A stretch of 64,000 nucleotides of DNA from Clostridia bacterium (lineage in GTDB: Bacteria; Bacillota; Clostridia; Oscillospirales; RGIG5299), in the NCBI GenBank assembly GCA_017504945.1, contig JAFVQJ010000013.1:14414-78413 (forward strand). Reading direction: 5' to 3'. Positions 33,734 to 44,537 of the stretch are shown in pieces (the first letter of the stretch is position 1; the number at the start of each line of letters is the position of its first letter). Both the position numbers and the translations under genes were made by a program. Under the pieces are notes generated by a model. The model did not search any database. It was given only the letters and a program-made list of their open reading frames with translations, and was not told the DNA's origin.

Positions 33734-34197
33734 AAAAACACCTCTTTGATCGTTCTACGTTTTTATGATAACACATAAATTATCGTTTGTCAATAACTTT
33801 TTATCATTTTTCACTATTTTATTGGCTCTATTAAACTTTATAGTTGGTGTGAATAAATCGCCAAAATATTGAATATTTGCGGTATTTTTATGCATATTTT
33901 CCTTCAATATGCGATAAATAGTATAAATATTCTCATAAAATTTTTAAAAAATTTTTTATTATAGCAGATTGGCTACAACATTGTTTATACAATTGTTTCA
34001 ATGTTCACTCCCAAAAGCATTTATCGAAATGACGTTGGGTTATGCGTTGCCGGATATAATCACTCAAAGAAAACAGATGAAGAGGTAGATTTAAAAAGCA
34101 TTTGTAACGTTAAACTTGTGAAAACTCGAAAAAATATCGTTTTATAAAGTGATTTAACCCAAAACTGAGGCATACCTCATTCAAATCGATGGTAATA

Positions 34198-34227
34198 TCT
34201 GCTAAAATTTTGTAAAATTTTAGCAGA
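34198..34227. promoter_or_regulatory. perfect 14-bp inverted repeat (candidate operator or hairpin) abutting the RBS of the HTH gene
   Basis: TCTGCTAAAATTTT-GT-AAAATTTTAGCAGA, ending 14 nt before the GTG start. Confidence 0.5.
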
Positions 34228-34241
34228 AGAGGTCGATTTAC

Positions 34242-34505
34242 GTGAGAAAACTGTCGAAAGAAATCTTGAAGGAATGGTTCAATAATCAGCTTATACAAGC
34301 AAGAGCCGAAAATAATTTTACGCAACTGCAAATGTCCGAGCTATTGTTAATGGATGAAAGGTCTTATATTGATTTGGAGCACGGCAAAACCGGATGCAGC
34401 GCATTAACCTTGGTTTTGTTTATCATTTATTTTGTTAAAGACAAAAATGAATTCTTTGATACGCTGAAAAATGAGCTCAAAAAGATAAATGAAGACGTTG
34501 CATAA
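34242..34505 (+). CDS. XRE-like helix-turn-helix protein
   Basis: 87 aa with a GTG start and a GAGG RBS. The HTH-like segment is FTQLQMSELLLMDERSYIDLEHGKT. Confidence 0.55.
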   Translation: MRKLSKEILKEWFNNQLIQARAENNFTQLQMSELLLMDERSYIDLEHGKTGCSALTLVLFIIYFVKDKNEFFDTLKNELKKINEDVA

Positions 34506-34689
34506 TACCAAAAGATCTTTACGGGAAGAAATTGAGTTCAGGATTTCTAAGCCGGTGACGGAAAGCGTTTGCTTTGTTAACGGTTACAGATACGCCGTTT
34601 GCCCGAAATGCAAAAGCACGCTTGAACGGGAATACTTAAATTATTGCGACCGTTGCGGGCAGGCGTTAGATTGGAGAAAATATAAATAA
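34489..34689 (+). CDS. small zinc-ribbon protein
   Basis: 66 aa with CPKC..(13)..CDRC. It overlaps the HTH gene by 17 nt and has no clear SD. Confidence 0.4.
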   Translation: MKTLHNTKRSLREEIEFRISKPVTESVCFVNGYRYAVCPKCKSTLEREYLNYCDRCGQALDWRKYK

Positions 34690-34746
34690 AAAATTAGCTC
34701 GAATTGCACTGCTTTCAAGAAGAAAAAATTAGCTTTACAGCACAAA

Positions 34747-34786
34747 AGAAAGAGCCTTGCTTTTTAGCAGGGCTCTTATCTTTTAA
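34747..34786. terminator. bidirectional intrinsic terminator
   Basis: 10-bp stem AGAGCCTTGC/GCAGGGCTCT between convergent genes. Confidence 0.7.
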
Positions 34787-35514
34787 TTTGCGGTGGAGGC
34801 ATTTAATTGAATATATTCTTTTCTTTTCAGTAAAACCTTTTCTATAAATTTCGGGTAAATATCGGTAACTGCAAGCAATAGGTTTGTTCCAGAAGCTGAT
34901 AATACAGCTATCAAAAGATACTGCTTATTCAAAGCAAGATTCATTGAAGGAGTTTGATCGGCCAAAAAGATTCCATAAAGTACAAAGTACAAAACAGTTA
35001 ATGCAATTACGGGAAGAATGGGAAGTAAAATATAATATCCAAGTTTTTTCACTGTTGCTTGCACTGTGGTTATAATAGTTGTTTTTCCAAAAAGGCGATT
35101 ATCTATTTGCCACAAGATAAATACAGGCAATGTAACCGACAATGCAAAAATAAATATTTGTAGCGGAACAAACACTATTCCTTCGCTCATTTTTGAAACT
35201 AAACTGCAAATTAAACCTAACATAGAGAGAAGCAAAGAATCTCTTATTATAACTAAATACTGTATTTTTTGTTTTAATACATTTTTGCAGTATAAATAAA
35301 ACAGTACAAAATATCCGGCAAAAGTTCCAAAAAACGGAAGTAAAGAACTTTCATAGTTAAAAAGAAAAGTTGCTATTTGCTTGAAGAAAAGCGGCGCACC
35401 GTTTTCATCGTCAACTATACCGTATACCAAATTTCTCAAAGGAATAGTAATAAAATATACTGACAACAGTACTAATGCATTAACTACCATTGAAATTTTA
35501 ATTATCTTTTTCAT
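34783..35514 (-). CDS. polytopic (about 7 TM) membrane protein, candidate immunity protein for the orphan Rhs toxin
   Basis: An AAGGAG RBS lies in the 17-nt gap after the orphan toxin stop. The gene is strongly hydrophobic and AT-rich. Confidence 0.55.
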   Translation of the reverse strand: MKKIIKISMVVNALVLLSVYFITIPLRNLVYGIVDDENGAPLFFKQIATFLFNYESSLLPFFGTFAGYFVLFYLYCKNVLKQKIQYLVIIRDSLLLSMLGLICSLVSKMSEGIVFVPLQIFIFALSVTLPVFILWQIDNRLFGKTTIITTVQATVKKLGYYILLPILPVIALTVLYFVLYGIFLADQTPSMNLALNKQYLLIAVLSASGTNLLLAVTDIYPKFIEKVLLKRKEYIQLNASTAN

Positions 35515-35531
35515 ATTTTACTCCTTATAAA

Positions 35532-36737
35532 TCAATAAAAGGTTTGGGTTTGAACTGGTCCATAGTATCTATGACTATATTGATAGCTTCCGTACATTTG
35601 GTCAAATACTGTAATAGCTCGCTTCTTTTTATAATATGTAGTAACCATTCTATATGACATACTTTTAATTATTGCTATATCTATATTCCCGTCTATCCCT
35701 CTAATTGAATTTTCTATATATCTATTTGTGGGTTTATAAGAGCCAATACCAGTTATAAGAACGTCTATATAAAATGAGATATTGGGAATATATGATCCTA
35801 ATAGAAGCTCTGCGCATGCTTTAAAAGGTTCTATTGCAAGGGAATTAGCGAAGTTATTTACAAAAGAAACAAAATCGTTTGCTGCTTTATATGTTTTATC
35901 AAGATAATTTCTCCATTTTTTTGCTGACATTACCTGAGTTTTTATAACAACTTCAACCCCGGCTTGAGTGCCATAGAATAATCCATTTTTTATTCTGTCA
36001 CATCCTATGTAAGCAAGATTAAGATATCCAGATTCATCATAATACATATGGCTAAAATAAAGATCATACTGTTTTAAAACCTGTGGCATTTGAAGCGGAT
36101 CTGCAATAACAAAGCTATTAGATGGTGAATAAAAATAAGTTGTACCTTGTGGATCGAAGTATACTATCGGATTATTCCCACAATATGTAAACAAATTAAA
36201 TCCTAATAAATCATCGTTAATTTGTTCGTCCTCATTAATCCACCTACCCACCTCAGGATCATAATACCTGCTGATGCAGTAATAAAATCCCGTATCGGTG
36301 TCGTAGTAATAGCCTCTGTAGCGTAAGGGATTTATAGTTCCTAAAGTAGAAGCCATAGAGCCGGTGGTAGAAAGTAGTTTACCCCAGCTATCATAGCTGT
36401 ATTCAACTACAACTGCGCCGGTGTTATCAATAATAGCTATAATATCTCCTTGTAAATTTAATACGTAGAAATATTCAACTCCATTATAGCTAATTGAAAG
36501 AGGCGCACCGTTTTCATCATAACGGAAGAAAAGCTCGTTTGTTATTACGTTATTGTTTTCAGTATACTGATGAACTATCTTACCGTTATCGTAGGTATAA
36601 CGGGTAATTCCAAAGCTATCTTGCTTTGAAACTCTTAAACCACTATCATCGTAACTATACTGCACCAAAACACCGTTTTTAGCGGTAGAAATTAGCCTTC
36701 TGCCTTCCCACGTCATAGTTCTTCCCATATAATTCAA
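35532..36737 (-). CDS. orphan Rhs C-terminal cassette (Rhs core tail + divergent toxin domain), no canonical start
   Basis: The first ~177 aa of the homologous frame (starting ITYDAIGNPL, ~29 nt upstream of 36737) are about 90% identical to residues near the end of the main Rhs core. The NNPIVYFDPQG core-end motif is followed by a unique 203-aa tail. The frame is open to about 36775 without an ATG or SD. Confidence 0.8.
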   Translation of the reverse strand: MNYMGRTMTWEGRRLISTAKNGVLVQYSYDDSGLRVSKQDSFGITRYTYDNGKIVHQYTENNNVITNELFFRYDENGAPLSISYNGVEYFYVLNLQGDIIAIIDNTGAVVVEYSYDSWGKLLSTTGSMASTLGTINPLRYRGYYYDTDTGFYYCISRYYDPEVGRWINEDEQINDDLLGFNLFTYCGNNPIVYFDPQGTTYFYSPSNSFVIADPLQMPQVLKQYDLYFSHMYYDESGYLNLAYIGCDRIKNGLFYGTQAGVEVVIKTQVMSAKKWRNYLDKTYKAANDFVSFVNNFANSLAIEPFKACAELLLGSYIPNISFYIDVLITGIGSYKPTNRYIENSIRGIDGNIDIAIIKSMSYRMVTTYYKKKRAITVFDQMYGSYQYSHRYYGPVQTQTFY

Positions 36738-36766
36738 GGGATTTCCTATTGCATCGTAGGTTATAG
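36242..36766 (-). repeat. direct repeat copy A (orphan) of the Rhs core 3' region
   Basis: It aligns with 38000-38522. I counted 17 amino-acid differences in 177 aligned codons by hand. Confidence 0.85.
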
Positions 36767-36861
36767 CTTTACATAATTATTTTACCATAATATTCTCCAA
36801 CATTCAACAAATTTTGAAAAATTTGTAAAAATATATAATGAGTAAAATTTCAAAAAAGGAA

Positions 36862-36905
36862 CAAAAACCCCGAAATTCGTAATGAGTTTCGGGGGGTTTT
36901 TGTTT
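36862..36905. terminator. bidirectional intrinsic terminator after the Rhs-immunity operon
   Basis: CCCCGAAA/TTTCGGGG stem flanked by A and T runs, 43 nt downstream of the immunity gene stop. Confidence 0.75.
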
Positions 36906-36947
36906 AAGCTAGGATTAATTCTTTTTAGTTATAGTACTTGTACCACA

Positions 36948-37316
36948 TCAACTCATCAAGTAAGTTTTAATAAAATCAACATATAAATCAACCAGTTTTA
37001 TAAATTGTTCACGTGATATTGAGTATGAGTTGTGTGGCAATAAATATATCTCCTTTAACAATTGTGAAAATTTCTTTTCCTCCCAATTTAAATTATCAAT
37101 TACAACATTATTATAACTCGTTTTTACTAACGTTTTTGTGTTTTCCCTTATTGTAAGGTCCAAAAACTCATTATAACAATCAAAATGTATGGATATGAGA
37201 AAATCATTTTTTCGAAATTGTAGTGCATAAAAGGTACTATTCTCAATAATGTTGCTATAAGAATAACCCATTTTAATTAAAAAAAGAAATTTGTGTTTAA
37301 TTATTTTTATATTCAC
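36948..37316 (-). CDS. candidate cognate immunity protein of the main Rhs toxin
   Basis: 122 aa, very AT-rich and apparently cytoplasmic. The GTG start is preceded by a GAGGGA RBS that directly follows the Rhs stop codon. Confidence 0.6.
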   Translation of the reverse strand: MNIKIIKHKFLFLIKMGYSYSNIIENSTFYALQFRKNDFLISIHFDCYNEFLDLTIRENTKTLVKTSYNNVVIDNLNWEEKKFSQLLKEIYLLPHNSYSISREQFIKLVDLYVDFIKTYLMS

Positions 37317-37326
37317 GCTAATTCCC

Positions 37327-40300
37327 TCAAAACATCTTCACATAATTGAAATAGCCATTTACTACTTGCCGTTCCATTGCATACCATCTACTGGTAATAT
37401 TAGCACCTACCGAGCCAGTATCATAGATAGGGGCGCCAAGTTTTGTCATTCTATTAATAAACGCTTTATTATGCATAAGACTGAGGTCATCCGCGAGTTG
37501 TTCCCCAATTTTAGGAATTTTTTTAATTAAGTTATATCCTTTCATTGGTTTATATGTTGTCGCATCAACAACTTGTGCCGCTTTTCCGACGCGGCTCATA
37601 TCTTCTCCTATTGCAATACCTTGTTTGGCGGTTTTAACAGCTTTAACTGCACCAATTGATGAAGAAGCAAATGCACCTATGCCACCCCACATAAATCCAT
37701 CGCAGGCCCCGTCTATCATTCCTTGGACACCACCAGTTATATATCCTGTGACAGCACCAGACAATGTGCTGGCCGCTACGCCAATCAATAATGGTGCAAC
37801 TGCACCACCAGTTGCAACTGTAATAGCAACTGCTGCAACCGTAGCCACAGCACCTATTGTAACTTTTAGCCAATTGGGCATAGACCAGTTGCCATTAGTG
37901 TCAAAACGATTAACAGGATTATTCATACAATATGCGAACATATTATATCCCTGTATTGAATCACCAACACCAGCAATTATACTATCTACATTTATAAACC
38001 TACCCACCTCGGGATCATAATATCTGCTGTTGCAATAATAGAATCCCGTATCGGTGTCGTAGTAATAGCCTCTGTAACGCAATGGGTTTACTACGCCTAA
38101 AGTGGTTGCCATTGTGCCTGTGGTAGCAATCAATTTACCCCAGCTATCGTAGGAATACTCAACTACAACGGCGCCGGTATTATCAATAATACCAATAATA
38201 TCGCCCTGTAAGTTTAATACATAGAAATATTCTACGCCATTATAGCTTACAGAAAGAGGCGCGCCGTTTTCATCATAGCGGAAGAAAAGCTCATTGCTTA
38301 TTACGTTATTGTTTTCGGTGTACTGATGAACAATTCTACCGTTATCATAAGTATAACGTGTTATACCGTTGGAATCTTGCTTGGAAAGTCTTAAACCACT
38401 ATCATCGTAACTATACTGTATTAATGCGCCATTCTTGGTGGTGGAAATTAACCTTCTGCCTTCCCACGTCATAGTTCTTCCCATATAATTTAAGGGATTT
38501 CCTATTGCATCGTAGGTTATAGTCTGTCCGTTATACGAGGTAAGAAGATCTTTCCAATCGTTGTTGGAATAACCGTAATTTTTTACACTTACAGCAGTTC
38601 CGAGAGTTTCCGCGGTTGTATAAGCATACTCACTCTTTGAAAGAATATTTCCTCCGGCATCGTAGGTGTAGGTTATGGTCTTGCTTATAAAGCCGTTATT
38701 CTCTCTTATGAGTTGACCTAACGAATCGTACACGTAGCTTACGGTGCTTGTGCCGTCGCTTATCGAGGTTATATTGCCGTTGTAATCATAGGTATAGCTG
38801 AAATTCTTAAACTGTGTGCCGGGAAGATTGATTCTGAAATTAGAAACTATACCCGATTGGAGCAGAGTATCGCCCACGATCTTCGAACGGTAGGTAAAGA
38901 GGTATTCAAGCAGTGTTACCGCGTTTTCGCCCGTTTGCTTTATAAGTGTTTTACCCGAATTTCTTCCAATTGCATCGGCGCTTGAATGGGCAAGGTAAGT
39001 TCTTTCGTTATCGCCTTCACCCTCTACGAATTTCACGGTAACGGTGCCGTCGCCGTTTTCGCCGTCCTCATAGGTGTATTCGGTTTCCTTTACGGTTCCG
39101 TTAATAACACGAGTCTGCTTTATAAGGCGGTTTTCGCTGTCGAAGGTCTGGGTAACATTGTAGCTGTAGCCCGTTCCCGAAATGGAGCTTACCTTCATTG
39201 CGGCAAGGTCGCCGTCGTAGTTATAATAATAGTTTGTCTTTAAGTTGTTACCGTTGTCTACCGTTTCAATAAGTCTGCCGAGGCTGTCGTAGGTAAATTC
39301 ATAGCGAGCATCGGTGGCATCATTTACGAAGATGGCGGTTACATTATCGTTTTCCACACCGCCTGCTACGTTGGTATCTTGGTTTGCATACTCGTAGCTT
39401 ACTTTGTAGCCGTTTCCGTAAACGGCATTATCTAAAACGCCGTTATGTAAGATATCCTTGTAGTTGTTAGTAACGAGGACTGTGCCGCCAACGGATACTT
39501 CGGTGGTCTGACCGTATTTATTGTAGTCAAAGCCGTATTCCACGCCGTTTAAGCTGGTGATCTTCGAAAGTCTGCCTTCAGTATCATACTCATAATTAAC
39601 CGAATCGTTGCCTGCAGTAATAGAGGTTACTCTGTGGTTTGAATCGTAGCTGTAGCTTACGGTATTCCCTTCATTATCTGTAGCAGAGGTAAGAAGTCCC
39701 GTTGAGAGATCGTAGTTATATGCCGTATGGGATTCCTGCAGCTCGTCGAATACCTTTGTGAGATAGTTACCGTTTGCGGTGTATTCGTTTAGTGTTTCGG
39801 TATAGTAAACAGTATCGCCCTTGGTGTGAGTCGTGCGGGAAAGCAGGGTGTTGCCGTAAGCGTCACGCGATACGGTGTTGGTCTCGGTGGTAACCGAATC
39901 GGCAGATACTCTTATTCCCGTTGTGTCGCCGTCAGACTTGGTTATATTTATTGTCTGAGTTTTTTCGGTGCCGTCTGCCTTTTTAACGGTGCGGGTAACG
40001 GAGGTCACTTCGCCGTCTTCGTTATAGGTGTAGCTGTAGGTCTCGTCGTCGAAGGTGGTCTGCTCGCTAATATAGCCCGCCGAGTTGTAGGTGTAGATCG
40101 TTCCCGCCTTTTCCTTGAATGCCTGAATGCCGTCGAAATATGCGGTGTTGCTGTTATAGTTATAGCAGAGGTAAATATCTATTGAGGTGTAGTTATTCTG
40201 TGCGGTTACGGTGCCGTAAACGTATTGCCAATCGTTTACGTAGGAGTTGAAGGACACGTAGCCTGCGGTTTTATCCGCGTCGTTCTCGGCATCGTTGAAA

Positions 40301-43300
40301 ACCACGAGGATTCCGAATCTAAGAGGAGTGTTTTCGGATACGGGAAGGGAGCTTGCTTTCGCCCAGCCGGAGAAGGTGATGGTATCGCCTGCGTTGCCCG
40401 AGCCGGAGATGGTCTGGGAGGCATACTTTTCGGCATCGACCTGTCCCGTTATTTTGAGGGCGTTTGCATCTCTGTAGTCGGAGGTGTTATCCGAGTCTGA
40501 TGCGACCGTTAACGCGGTGCCTGTCCAATTAGTTATGCCGTTATTGAAGTCGCCGTTTGAGATTATATTATCTCTTTGCGAGGCGTTATCTCCTATAGTT
40601 ACCTGGAGATCGTCAAAATATGCAATACCTTTAGCGCCGCTTGCTCCGAGATAAAGCTTTAACGTTTCGGTGCCGGTTGAGCTTGCGCCGTACTCTGCGG
40701 TTACCTTTACGCGTGTCCATTCACCCAAGGAGACTTCCTCGGATTTGGTTTTTACTATTTTATTTGCCATTTCAACGGCGATATATGCATTTACGTCGGT
40801 TGCCGCCGTTTTTATCCACGCGGAGAAGGTTATTACGGTTGCCTTATTGGCAGGGACGGTGAGATTGTAATTTGCTTCGAGAGTTGTATTATCAGTGCCC
40901 CTGGTAATCATAAAGCCGTACATGCCACTGCGGCCGCCTGCGCTTCTCATTCCGTAGTCTACCACTCCGAGTGAGGAAGAAAAAGAAACGGTTCCTTTCT
41001 CAAAGCTCGGGTCGGCTAAGAGATTTATTGTCTGGTTCTGCGGACGGGAGGATAAGGTCAGCTTATTTATACTGCCCTCGCCGTATTCTCTGCCGTAATC
41101 ATAGAAATAGCCGTTGCCGTTCTCATCTGAGGACGAGATAAGGTTTCCTCTTGAATCGAAATTCATATAGGAAATGTTGCCCTTTGAATCGGTCAACTTT
41201 GTTCTGTAGGTGGCATACTCGAAAGTTAAGGTTTCGTCTGCTTCGCTTTGCTGGTTTCCGCTGTAATAGGAAACTGTTTCAACTTTATTGTTGCTACAGG
41301 TAAATACGTATCTGTCACCCGTATCCTTGTCAATAAATGTGGTCGTTCCATTCGTAAATGAAGTATAGCTCGAAATTGCCGATTCGCTGTTACCGTTAGG
41401 TCCCACCGCAGTAAGAGGCATATTCACCGCATTAAAAGTATATGCGGTTTTCGAAATATAACCTTCTGTAGTATTAGTAATGAGCGTGTGATCAGCTACG
41501 GTATTACCGAAATACCGTATTTCCGTAAAATACAACACTGCACCGCTGTTATAGATGAATTTGTATATACGTCCCGCACCGTCTATTATGCAGTCAATAA
41601 CGTAGCCGGTGGTGTTTTTGTAATATATCTGAATTTTGTTATCCGAAACAGTAACACCTGTGCCTGCAAGTGTATTTTCGGAGTTTTTATCCGTTATTGC
41701 AACAAGTCTGCCCGAGGCATCGGTGTCGAACATATAACGCAGTCCCGAGTCGGAATGATAGCAATAATGTGTCTTGCCGTTATAGGTTACCGTTTCAAAA
41801 TATTCGCTCGGCCACGCTTCCGCTTCGTATATTCCACTTTCATTTTCGGTTATTCTTGTGGAGTATTTATCCGGTACGTAAATTCCTTTTGTAACGTCTC
41901 CGACCTTATATTGCTGCAACACGAAATACCTTTTGCTGTGTGTGCCATCGATATATTCAATATAATTTTCGCTACCTATGGTCTTAAGGGTAATATGCTG
42001 ATGGTAGTTTGTTTTTACAAACATACCGATATTGTAGGTCATCCAGCCGATATTGTTACCAAAAACCATATTTATTGAAACCGGCAAAATGTTTCCGTCA
42101 TAGCCTATATCATTTCTTATTACGGTAAGACTTCCGGAAAACGGATTTATATATGCCGTTCCCGCAGAGCCCATATCCACGGTATAGCTCGGATTATCCG
42201 TAAGTCCGCTTACGTTTCTGTATGCAAAGTAAATGCAAGGACGGCGGTTTTCGGTGCCGTATTCCGCAGATCTGAAGGTTGCATAATTGCCGGACTCTTC
42301 GGTGCGGTATTTGAGCATAAAGCCAAGGTTATTGTCTTCCGATTCATACCATTTGTTTACGAGGGTAGTTACGTCGAAATAGTAATATTCCGGCGCAGTC
42401 ATTTCACAGCTGTCGATTACTGCTGTTTCATAATCCGGTTTATTGTTCCAGTTTATACTGTTATACGTAAAGGTCGATTTGATATTGTGAAGCTCGGCAT
42501 ATCCGCTTCCGTTATAGTTTGTGCGCCAGATCTTGAGCTCTGCTTTTATAAGCACGTCGCCTGCGGCAAGGGTGGGCAGATAATCCTGGTTGAACTTCAT
42601 ATAGGTTCTGTTTATGCCGCGACCCTCACAGCCCATTCTTAAGAAGTTCTGATTCCAATAATTTAAGGTAGGATAGCCCGAGGCAACGGTAACGTCCTGC
42701 ATTACGTCGCTTCCCGTTCCGCCGGTTACGGTGGGATCTACGGTTACGGGATATACTCGGTCATCGGAAGAAAGCCATTCGTATGCCGGCGTGTAGGTGA
42801 GTATGTATTTGTTTTTCGAGGAAGTGGGAGATAACGTTACGGAGATATCGTCGGAATACTCTCCGTTTGCATCCTCCATAAAGGGCGCGTAGATCGTAAA
42901 GAAAACTTCGCCCGTGCTTCTGTCCGAGAAGGTAAGGCTTCCGTCGTCGTAAAGAGTGGCGACCAAGCCGTGAGTGTTTATCTCATAGGAATAGCCCGTT
43001 TCCCTTTCGGGCATTTTGTTAAGTATTATCTCTTCCTTTAGCTCATTGCTCTTTATGGTATACGCTATATCCGTATCCTTGAAGGTGTTTTTGTAATTGA
43101 GCTTGGAATATATCTTACTGCTTACGTCGGTCTTATCCGTGCTGCGAGATGCTTTAGAGGCTATTTTGCCCTCTGCGGCATTGGCGTTTAAGAGCTTGAA
43201 GGTAAGCTTTGCATTATTTTTTGATACGGATATTTCAGAACCGTTGTTTAGCTGATTGGGCAGCTCTACCGAGAAAGAGTTATCTTTATTCTTAAAGGTA

Positions 43301-43656
43301 TTTGTCTTTTCATCGGCAACAACGGAGTTATCTATTTCCTTCCAGCTTCCGTTTTCGAGATAATGCACCGCCTCGGGATACATTACGGCGATCATTATTC
43401 CTTCCTCGGTATTAAAATGCTTTACCGATTCTTCACGGAGTGAAATATCTTCATCTGTTATAGTAAGATCTTCAAAATCTATATTTTCGTAATCCAGGTA
43501 GGTGTTTACAACGTTTTGCTTTTTTGAAGAATTATTAGCTTTTTCGGAAGTTTCAAAGGTTATTCCTGCTTGCGCAAAGCCCTGTATTGCAAGCGTTACG
43601 AACAAGGTAACGCTGATGAGCAGTGCACAGGATTTCTTTAGTAACCTGATAAACAT
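37327..43656 (-). CDS. Rhs/YD-repeat polymorphic toxin, WapA-like (Sec signal peptide)
   Basis: 2109 aa with a signal peptide ending AQA. A DNRLRE-like N-domain and two CBM4_9-like jelly-roll modules (NGDFNNGITNW .. AYFDGIQ) come first. Dozens of YD repeats follow. The Rhs core tail is PLRYRGYYYDTDTGFYYCNSRYYDPEVGRF .. NPVNRFDTNG, and a 185-aa C-terminal domain ends the protein. Confidence 0.95.
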   Translation of the reverse strand: MFIRLLKKSCALLISVTLFVTLAIQGFAQAGITFETSEKANNSSKKQNVVNTYLDYENIDFEDLTITDEDISLREESVKHFNTEEGIMIAVMYPEAVHYLENGSWKEIDNSVVADEKTNTFKNKDNSFSVELPNQLNNGSEISVSKNNAKLTFKLLNANAAEGKIASKASRSTDKTDVSSKIYSKLNYKNTFKDTDIAYTIKSNELKEEIILNKMPERETGYSYEINTHGLVATLYDDGSLTFSDRSTGEVFFTIYAPFMEDANGEYSDDISVTLSPTSSKNKYILTYTPAYEWLSSDDRVYPVTVDPTVTGGTGSDVMQDVTVASGYPTLNYWNQNFLRMGCEGRGINRTYMKFNQDYLPTLAAGDVLIKAELKIWRTNYNGSGYAELHNIKSTFTYNSINWNNKPDYETAVIDSCEMTAPEYYYFDVTTLVNKWYESEDNNLGFMLKYRTEESGNYATFRSAEYGTENRRPCIYFAYRNVSGLTDNPSYTVDMGSAGTAYINPFSGSLTVIRNDIGYDGNILPVSINMVFGNNIGWMTYNIGMFVKTNYHQHITLKTIGSENYIEYIDGTHSKRYFVLQQYKVGDVTKGIYVPDKYSTRITENESGIYEAEAWPSEYFETVTYNGKTHYCYHSDSGLRYMFDTDASGRLVAITDKNSENTLAGTGVTVSDNKIQIYYKNTTGYVIDCIIDGAGRIYKFIYNSGAVLYFTEIRYFGNTVADHTLITNTTEGYISKTAYTFNAVNMPLTAVGPNGNSESAISSYTSFTNGTTTFIDKDTGDRYVFTCSNNKVETVSYYSGNQQSEADETLTFEYATYRTKLTDSKGNISYMNFDSRGNLISSSDENGNGYFYDYGREYGEGSINKLTLSSRPQNQTINLLADPSFEKGTVSFSSSLGVVDYGMRSAGGRSGMYGFMITRGTDNTTLEANYNLTVPANKATVITFSAWIKTAATDVNAYIAVEMANKIVKTKSEEVSLGEWTRVKVTAEYGASSTGTETLKLYLGASGAKGIAYFDDLQVTIGDNASQRDNIISNGDFNNGITNWTGTALTVASDSDNTSDYRDANALKITGQVDAEKYASQTISGSGNAGDTITFSGWAKASSLPVSENTPLRFGILVVFNDAENDADKTAGYVSFNSYVNDWQYVYGTVTAQNNYTSIDIYLCYNYNSNTAYFDGIQAFKEKAGTIYTYNSAGYISEQTTFDDETYSYTYNEDGEVTSVTRTVKKADGTEKTQTINITKSDGDTTGIRVSADSVTTETNTVSRDAYGNTLLSRTTHTKGDTVYYTETLNEYTANGNYLTKVFDELQESHTAYNYDLSTGLLTSATDNEGNTVSYSYDSNHRVTSITAGNDSVNYEYDTEGRLSKITSLNGVEYGFDYNKYGQTTEVSVGGTVLVTNNYKDILHNGVLDNAVYGNGYKVSYEYANQDTNVAGGVENDNVTAIFVNDATDARYEFTYDSLGRLIETVDNGNNLKTNYYYNYDGDLAAMKVSSISGTGYSYNVTQTFDSENRLIKQTRVINGTVKETEYTYEDGENGDGTVTVKFVEGEGDNERTYLAHSSADAIGRNSGKTLIKQTGENAVTLLEYLFTYRSKIVGDTLLQSGIVSNFRINLPGTQFKNFSYTYDYNGNITSISDGTSTVSYVYDSLGQLIRENNGFISKTITYTYDAGGNILSKSEYAYTTAETLGTAVSVKNYGYSNNDWKDLLTSYNGQTITYDAIGNPLNYMGRTMTWEGRRLISTTKNGALIQYSYDDSGLRLSKQDSNGITRYTYDNGRIVHQYTENNNVISNELFFRYDENGAPLSVSYNGVEYFYVLNLQGDIIGIIDNTGAVVVEYSYDSWGKLIATTGTMATTLGVVNPLRYRGYYYDTDTGFYYCNSRYYDPEVGRFINVDSIIAGVGDSIQGYNMFAYCMNNPVNRFDTNGNWSMPNWLKVTIGAVATVAAVAITVATGGAVAPLLIGVAASTLSGAVTGYITGGVQGMIDGACDGFMWGGIGAFASSSIGAVKAVKTAKQGIAIGEDMSRVGKAAQVVDATTYKPMKGYNLIKKIPKIGEQLADDLSLMHNKAFINRMTKLGAPIYDTGSVGANITSRWYAMERQVVNGYFNYVKMF
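38000..38522 (-). repeat. direct repeat copy B (inside the main Rhs gene)
   Basis: Partner of 36242-36766. Confidence 0.85.
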
Positions 43657-43794
43657 GATGATTTTCCTTTCTTTTATGATATTTTCTCGTTGTCGTTTGT
43701 TATAAAGATAGCTATATAATCCTTTTTTTCACCTCCTTTTTTAAATATTGAATTCTTGCTCCGGTTCAACCATATTTATTCCTCCTTTTTAATT

Positions 43795-43856
43795 CATAAA
43801 AATAAAACAGACGCACTTGCCCTTTTCTGAATTGAAAGAAAGGCAGTACGTCTGTC
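43795..43856 (-). terminator. intrinsic terminator inside the Rhs 5' leader (T2)
   Basis: A long imperfect stem (CAGACG..ACUGCCUUU / AAAGGGCA..CGUCUG) is followed by UUUUAUUUUAU on the minus strand, about 140 nt before the Rhs ATG. Confidence 0.7.
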
Positions 43857-44064
43857 TCATGCGTGAGAAATGTGGAATTATTAATTTGTTTTTGCTATTG
43901 CGACCTTCACAATGTTCCCGCCGTCTTACAGCAATGATTCTGCTCTGAGGCAGTTTCACCCGAACGGCAACTACCTTTCCACATATAAATAATTAACTGC
44001 TGTTATTTTCTGAACTACACTATGGTTCATTGGTTGTCTTGATTTAACTTTTTTGGTTATTTCT
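43857..44064 (-). promoter_or_regulatory. structured leader RNA (candidate riboswitch/attenuator aptamer region)
   Basis: A 115-nt domain (43870-43984) is closed by the 8-bp helix AUGUGGAA/UUCCACAU. GGAAAGGUAGU (43970-43980) can instead pair over 11 bp with the terminator arm ACUGCCUUUCU (43837-43847). Confidence 0.45.
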
Positions 44065-44070
44065 ACCATA

Positions 44071-44100
44071 ATTATACTATACCGCACTCGGTTTTGTCAA
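44071..44100 (-). promoter_or_regulatory. sigma-A promoter P2 (minus strand)
   Basis: TTGACA (44100-44095), 18-nt spacer, TATAAT (44076-44071). Confidence 0.65.
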
Positions 44101-44115
44101 GGGTTGTATTATGCC

Positions 44116-44190
44116 GAAAAAGGAAAAATAAAAAGCACTCTGCAATAAATCCCATAGGCTCCAATTGCCAAGCGAAATATTGCAGAGTGT
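44116..44190 (-). terminator. intrinsic terminator T1 (minus strand)
   Basis: A 12-13-bp perfect stem CACUCUGCAAUA/UAUUGCAGAGUG has a 30-nt loop. It is followed by CUUUUUAUUUUUCCUUUUU. Confidence 0.65.
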
Positions 44191-44200
44191 TCTTGTCATT

Positions 44201-44280
44201 ATGATCCACCTTTATGCAGGAGTGGGGCCCTGGACATAAACGATTCGCCTTTATACAGGAGCGAAACCCTGAACATTAAA
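44201..44280 (-). repeat. tandem imperfect repeat (2 units, 39-40 nt) each able to fold as an H-type pseudoknot
   Basis: Unit A (44241-44280) and unit B (44201-44240) share UGUyCAGGG..CUCCUGyAUAAAGG..AUC. The loop to 3'-tail pairings are UUCGCU:GGCGAA in A and CCACU:GGUGG in B. Confidence 0.6.
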
Positions 44281-44290
44281 GCTTAAGAAG

Positions 44291-44319
44291 ATTATACCAT
44301 ACTATACAGTGTGTGTAAA
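44291..44319 (-). promoter_or_regulatory. sigma-A promoter P1 with extended -10 (minus strand)
   Basis: TTTACA (44319-44314), 17-nt spacer ending in TGG, TATAAT (44296-44291). Confidence 0.6.
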
Positions 44320-44537
44320 TAAATGGAATTTTTGGAGAAATTTCCATAAAAACCTCAACTGATTCATTTCAATGATATCTCGGTTACAATATAATCCTCT
44401 TCCCATTTTCTATGGTTTTTGCTTCATCTGTAAAAGAACCAACACCGTAAACATCATCATGATTTAAAATACCGATCCATCAGTTTGTACTAGGGCACTA
44501 TTAAAACAATATTTTCCGAGATTCATTGTAAATTTTG

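Follow-up and report, generated by a model that had tools for sequence, protein, structure and literature searches.

A probable displaced Rhs toxin-immunity module, and a repeat that could return it to use, behind a full-length Rhs gene of a Clostridia bacterium

Why should a bacterium keep, directly behind an intact Rhs gene, a second Rhs 3' end that has neither a proper start nor a signal peptide? The question is raised by a locus in a 64,000-nucleotide (nt) stretch of contig JAFVQJ010000013.1 (positions 14,414 to 78,413 of the forward strand; assembly GCA_017504945.1, a Clostridia bacterium), hereafter the window, in whose numbering coordinates are given. Here, a main Rhs gene with a C-terminal tip and a candidate immunity gene is followed by an orphan Rhs fragment with a different tip and a candidate immunity gene of its own, and the two modules share a direct repeat. 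Judging from the layout and the reading frames, we consider it likely that this is a displaced orphan Rhs C-terminal (CT)/immunity arrangement, in which C-terminal displacement left a silent orphan and a duplicated 3' core, and in which a crossover could activate the orphan tip. Such arrangements are classic, known from Salmonella, E. coli, and Streptococcus suis; the find is thus real but ordinary, the layout itself being already well known in other bacteria, and the accepted picture of Rhs evolution is unchanged by it. At the same time, the locus extends the main-plus-orphan layout and its recombination substrate to small-genome uncultured gut and rumen Clostridia, and it offers a concrete place to ask whether community bacteria change toxin by recombination. 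Its most distinctive features are a tip without relatives, paired with a polytopic membrane protein, and a conversion-like block at the edge of the repeat.

The two modules are tied together by the repeat, whose copies were delimited with a repeat finder, by MAFFT alignment, and by codon-wise comparison of the minus-strand genes (Table 1). The upstream copy is the 3' core of the main Rhs gene. Both copies are 522 nt long, align without gaps, and are in identical codon phase; they differ at 77 of 522 nt (85.2% identity) and at 16 of 174 amino acids (aa). Within the repeat, identity in 30-nt windows ranges from 70% to 100%, whereas on both flanks it collapses to 13–37%, and the edges are therefore abrupt; the longest perfect-match runs measure 29, 39, 30, and 35 nt. 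Start to start, the copies lie 1756 bp apart, and they are the only two in the host genome, which was searched as a metagenome-assembled bin of 1.38 Mb in 33 contigs, estimated to be 86% complete. The ratio of nonsynonymous to synonymous divergence (dN/dS) is 0.07 at a dS of 0.79, which indicates that most of the divergence accrued under the constraint of a working Rhs shell and, by the same token, that both copies probably evolved within working shells for most of that time. The original prediction, which had described a direct repeat of about 525 bp (36242-36766 and 38000-38522) with sharp ends on both sides, a hand count of 17 differences in 177 codons, and a prospective deletion of about 1.76 kb, was essentially right about the repeat, its edges, and its spacing, and its count was close to the exact value. 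The BLASTN comparison of the window with itself that accompanied it as a proposal recovers the same repeat, stretched a little (36233-36766 and 37989-38522).

The main module bears the marks of a complete Rhs protein. Behind an N-terminus that resembles a signal peptide when read by eye from the sequence, the gene carries YD/RHS repeats (PF05593, E 6e-26; TIGR01643, E 5e-23) and a complete Rhs-associated core (TIGR03696, E 2e-19). The C-terminal tip, which includes a glycine-rich hydrophobic segment, has no match in Pfam or NCBIfam. Its family recurs, at 43–70% identity, in no fewer than 10 further Rhs proteins of full length, the bodies of which are otherwise different, which argues that the main tip is a genuine polymorphic-toxin module. 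The 122-aa candidate immunity protein behind it matches no family in the same two collections and shows weak similarity to the product of a 124-aa gene that follows the same tip family on a metagenome scaffold (L132).

The orphan aligns with the main gene from main residue 1713 onward and, as had been proposed, its frame is blocked upstream: a stop codon lies four codons ahead of ITYD, with LCKA in between. In frame, start codons first occur as TTG at 36737 and then as ATG at 36728 and 36716, none of them with a good Shine-Dalgarno (SD) sequence. Past the stop, the fragment is whole. All 410 codons are open in DNA of 31–38% guanine plus cytosine (GC), and the core end, a stretch of 33 aa that has diverged from the main gene and terminates in NNPIVYFDPQG, is complete (TIGR03696 at residues 124–207 of 410). 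Across the tip, which has 31% GC, 203 codons would be free of stops by chance with a probability of about 4e-8; in the two remaining forward frames there are 15 and 24 stops.

In sequence, the orphan tip stands by itself. It matches no Pfam or NCBIfam family; across 1.84 billion representatives, a full HMMER scan recovered nothing but the orphan itself and a single spurious repeat protein, and back-translated scans of two collections of genome and metagenome contigs found nothing. With nothing similar among approximately 15 billion predicted proteins, the tip is a candidate new toxin fold, for which single-sequence AlphaFold2 gave an unusable model (mean predicted local distance difference test score of 33). 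Because no relatives were found, its standing as a working toxin is argued from the intact frame and the context only. The intact open reading frame that begins 17 nt past the orphan stop, behind a strong, canonical ribosome-binding site, encodes a protein with many hydrophobic segments, and this 243-aa membrane protein most likely confers immunity to the orphan tip.

These features suggest a history and a potential. By C-terminal displacement, a newly arrived tip and immunity module, bringing its own piece of core, would have recombined onto the Rhs gene already in place, the earlier tip and its immunity gene being shifted downstream, and the repeat would be the duplicated 3' end of the Rhs shell that remained after this event. 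The displaced tip would be silent, being without a start or a secretion signal and lying downstream of a terminator, while retaining an intact core end, a 203-codon tip, and a membrane-protein gene that is presumably well translated. A RecA-type crossover anywhere within the 522 nt would delete 1756 bp; with one repeat copy, the main tip and its immunity gene would be lost, as would the terminator. Given that the copies are gapless and in phase, any such crossover would yield an in-frame chimera, a protein of 2122 aa (1712 + 410) that carries the orphan tip and whose gene would lie immediately ahead of the orphan immunity gene and its terminator. The host genome encodes RecA. The history of displacement, the functions in toxicity and immunity, and the occurrence of switching are all inferred.

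The original prediction had read the locus in the same way, as an orphan or displaced CT, and every structural element of that reading holds. The bidirectional terminator that it placed at 36862-36905 is a strong hairpin (Table 1), which divides the main module from the orphan module; the crossover that it envisaged would indeed fuse the orphan tip in frame to the full-length Rhs; and the likeness that it saw to displaced CT loci is borne out by the Salmonella precedent discussed below (PMC3967940) and by recurrence of the layout in many related genomes. What it did not mention is a cost. A plain deletion also removes the main immunity gene, exposing the recombinants to the main toxin of their siblings, and switching probably needs a prior duplication by which the main immunity is retained.

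Table 1. Coordinates of the Rhs locus and its parts, in window positions.
Feature	Position	Strand	Details
Main Rhs gene	37327..43656	-	2109 aa; DNRLRE, YD repeats, Rhs-associated core at residues 1836-1922, C-terminal tip
Main repeat copy	37999..38520	-	522 nt; codons 1713-1886 of the main gene; repeat finder, MAFFT, and codon comparison
Candidate main immunity gene	36948..37316	-	122 aa; GTG start behind GAGGGA-N6; 24% GC
Intrinsic terminator, bidirectional form	36862..36905		Flanked by an A-run and a T-run (U-run); folding free energy (dG) -18.8 kcal/mol, z -4.7; closes the main operon
Promoter-like site	36779..36807	-	TTGAAT-17-TAAAAT with upstream TG; consensus match; ends about 15 nt before the repeat
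Orphan repeat copy	36243..36764	-	522 nt; single mismatch in the first 69 nt
Orphan Rhs fragment	35532..36764	-	410 open codons: 174 repeat codons, 33-aa diverged core end, 203-aa tip
Orphan tip	35532-36143	-	203 aa; end of the 410-codon orphan frame
Candidate orphan immunity gene	34783..35514	-	243-aa polytopic membrane protein; intact; AAGGAG 7 nt before ATG
Intrinsic terminator closing the orphan module	34750..34777		Follows the candidate orphan immunity gene

Whether the two copies have ever exchanged sequence can be asked of the repeat itself. At its 5' edge, the first 69 nt contain a single mismatch, as opposed to 76 in the remaining 453 nt (17%). In a permutation test in which differences were shuffled inside codon-position classes, such a block had p = 0.00015 at the 5' edge and 0.0044 anywhere in the repeat. 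At many sites of the block, a congener (G002) is unlike either copy, and the block is therefore not a matter of general nucleotide constraint. The simplest reading suggested by this pattern is a gene-conversion or heteroduplex-repair tract, in which case recombination enzymes would have acted on this pair of copies at least once.

Base composition bears on where the modules came from. The GC content at third codon positions (GC3) is 0.56–0.59 in housekeeping genes and 0.51–0.54 in the Rhs body, 0.41 and 0.36 in the main and orphan repeat copies, respectively, and 0.21–0.27 in the tips and immunity genes; the low values of the tips, immunity genes, and repeat copies would fit imported cassettes. 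Inside the main gene, GC3 drops from 0.54 to 0.39 at a change point at codon 1667, leaving a depressed stretch upstream of the repeat (38521-38660, main-gene codons approximately 1667-1712). The drop fits the arrival of tips with a foreign piece of core that was recombined onto a resident gene, although it does not fix the exact crossover, and more of the main gene than the repeat may have been imported. On a larger scale, the whole Rhs locus is an accessory island: its flanks, 10.7 kb apart here (33818-44521), adjoin directly in two congeners, where position 44522 joins position 33817 (contig C43 of G001 and contig C6 of G003). In the congener G002, an Rhs with 69% amino-acid identity lies at another site. 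Its contig terminates 265 nt into the repeat region, and assemblies tend to break at repeats; G002 stands at much the same distance from the two repeat copies (82% and 78% identity), which are 86% alike in the same comparison, values that do not decide which copy is ancestral.

Several observations weigh against a displaced module that can still be switched on. The repeat copies are 15% divergent, with perfect-match runs of no more than 39 nt, and both MutS and MutL are encoded in the host genome, for which reasons switching is expected to be rare. Such homeologous divergence, with mismatch repair at work, should depress recombination to a rate orders of magnitude below that of identical repeats. 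Recombinant junctions were not seen in any of the contigs carrying the main protein or the orphan immunity protein, which are few, are consensus assemblies, and present only the parental layout; the look-up by main protein is unable by construction to find recombinants, and this contig set is biased against their detection. Furthermore, no full-length protein in the databases searched carries a relative of the orphan tip, the relatives of the 243-aa protein (about 50% identity) sit in housekeeping surroundings in two congeners and not beside toxins, and the GC3 change point lies about 45 codons upstream of the repeat edge (codon 1713) instead of exactly on it.

Some of these observations would be accommodated if the orphan were a pure relic, the passenger of an immunity gene that guards against neighbors still deploying the tip, and if the repeat had never been used for switching. 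The divergence of the repeat in a genome with MutS and MutL, the terminator that isolates the orphan, the stand-alone relatives of the immunity candidate in congeners, and a 72-nt Rhs-core remnant in G002, which suggests that orphans decay in the genus, all speak for such an account. However, if immunity alone mattered, the tip should have gathered stops, and the 410-codon frame is wholly intact in DNA of low GC content; the near-identical 69-nt block, moreover, shows that the copies have interacted. We regard a pure relic as possible, if on balance unlikely.

Alternatively, the orphan might not be silent at all but expressed by itself, using an internal start and the promoter-like site at 36807-36779, and act inside the cell as a toxin-antitoxin-like pair, as has been reported for a Salmonella orphan (PMC7043789). 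The site has an extended -10 element and lies just upstream of the repeat, and in-frame ATG codons follow at 36728 and 36716. The original prediction had pointed to a possible weak internal promoter here, and a consensus site is indeed present, but promoter-like matches in this AT-rich stretch are not above chance (21 found versus 16.6 ± 3.6 in shuffles). The internal starts lack a good SD sequence and, since the main copy has these bases too, are not an orphan-specific adaptation; in addition, a polytopic membrane immunity candidate suggests an envelope target reached from outside and not a cytoplasmic pair. Self-expression thus appears improbable.

We give little credence to a bolder form of exchange, in which the 1756-bp unit (repeat copy, tip, immunity gene, and terminator) would be a true exchangeable cassette that moves as a circle by a single core crossover, the 69-nt block would be a maintained hot spot, and switching would be frequent and reversible in gut Clostridia. 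That the tandem layout is an assembly artefact joining the 3' ends of two co-existing strain alleles is hardly credible, since, even though the genome is a metagenome-assembled bin of 33 contigs and a congener contig breaks within the same repeat, the orphan copy abuts unique intergenic DNA at an abrupt edge, which is impossible for a misjoin at shared k-mers, the locus matches a 15-kb scaffold of another ENA assembly record (ERZ28653803) at 100% identity, and relatives commonly show this layout, on long contigs as well. Since that scaffold does not differ from the window, and a 100-kb ENA contig proved to be the window's own sequence, neither adds variation between strains at the tip.

Returning to the displaced module with an activatable tip, which we favor, the layout can be set beside known systems. 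In Salmonella Typhimurium LT2, which carries rhs-main together with rhs-CT-orphan, recombination in a 522-bp, 95%-identical repeat activates the orphan tip (Koskiniemi et al. 2014, PMC3967940); the recombinants also retained the parental locus, and the authors, faced with the same cost to immunity, proposed that a duplication preceded recombination. Both there and here, a startless orphan tip with its immunity gene lies behind a full-length Rhs in the same orientation, and a direct repeat of the 3' core is common to the two. The equal length of the repeats, 522 in both cases, is a coincidence, because similarity here ends 33 codons before the core-end DPxG motif. The loci differ in the identity of the repeat (95% in LT2 versus 85% here) and in export, the Salmonella Rhs leaving the cell through a type VI system, whereas the N-terminus of the present one resembles a signal peptide and a type VI context is absent. 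Furthermore, recombination was demonstrated in LT2, whereas here we infer it only.

A second parallel comes from Streptococcus suis CT2, in which a truncated WapA duplicate was read by the authors as an old effector-immunity pair pushed downstream (PMC12704120). In both cases, a truncated duplicate without a signal peptide lies behind a Sec-type, WapA-like Rhs; in S. suis, the core of the duplicate is incomplete. Unlike in that system, the host here belongs to the Clostridia (Oscillospirales-like), and a polytopic membrane protein accompanies a tip that lacks relatives. At contact-dependent inhibition loci, displaced toxin-tip/immunity pairs lie downstream of the main gene and retain homology to it. 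There, the delivery protein is a CdiA filament, in place of the Rhs shell considered here. Orphan cdiA-CT/cdiI modules at such loci figure in the account by Poole et al. 2011 (PMC3150448).

For one housekeeping gene of the window, the named relatives that come nearest, at identities of up to 69%, are bins of uncultured Ruminococcus, Oscillospiraceae, and Acutalibacteraceae, which places the host among Clostridia of the Oscillospirales kind. Closer to the host, Rhs 3'-core fragments occur in 15 of the 40 related genomes searched, several of them behind a full-length gene, and main-plus-orphan arrays are found in at least 5. The core fragments of these arrays begin at main-gene positions 1348–1869, compared with 1713 here, and the repeats between successive modules measure 330–1035 nt at 73–92% identity. 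On the scaffold L132, an 898-aa orphan shares 2085 nt with its main gene at 99.7% identity. By these comparisons, the present repeat falls in the middle of the range seen among relatives (330–2085 nt, 73–99.7% identity).

We note that L132 (8001-18273), a scaffold belonging to the same sample series, has two Rhs genes of full length. The second bears the main-tip family and is followed by the 124-aa gene, the 898-aa orphan, a 250-aa gene, and, further on, a phage-type integrase. The 72-nt remnant in G002 (L050:2099-2170, contig C15) is 79% identical to the orphan repeat (E 5e-9) and sits among small open reading frames whose leaders are of the lipoprotein type, and it has the appearance of an orphan that decayed within an array of immunity genes.

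The only relatives of the 243-aa immunity candidate are the stand-alone genes L037:1512-2213 (G001) and L043:3545-4252 (G002). Both adjoin a conserved 200-aa membrane protein, the one in G001 also a GLUG/Big_3 surface protein, and no Rhs lies beside them. The host genome contains the gene for the 200-aa neighbor (contig C18) and no second copy of the immunity-like gene.

As for the island, the flanks that are joined in G001 and G003 are the RmuC side and the DUF2975/HTH_26 side, with an overlap of about 8 nt at the junction, and the 10.7-kb insertion takes in the Rhs locus, the leader region upstream of it, and small helix-turn-helix (HTH) genes downstream. A 356-nt segment in the region of these small HTH genes, between the orphan immunity gene and the island edge (34338-34693), is 89% identical to contig C77 of G001, far above the 67–79% of the flanking housekeeping DNA.

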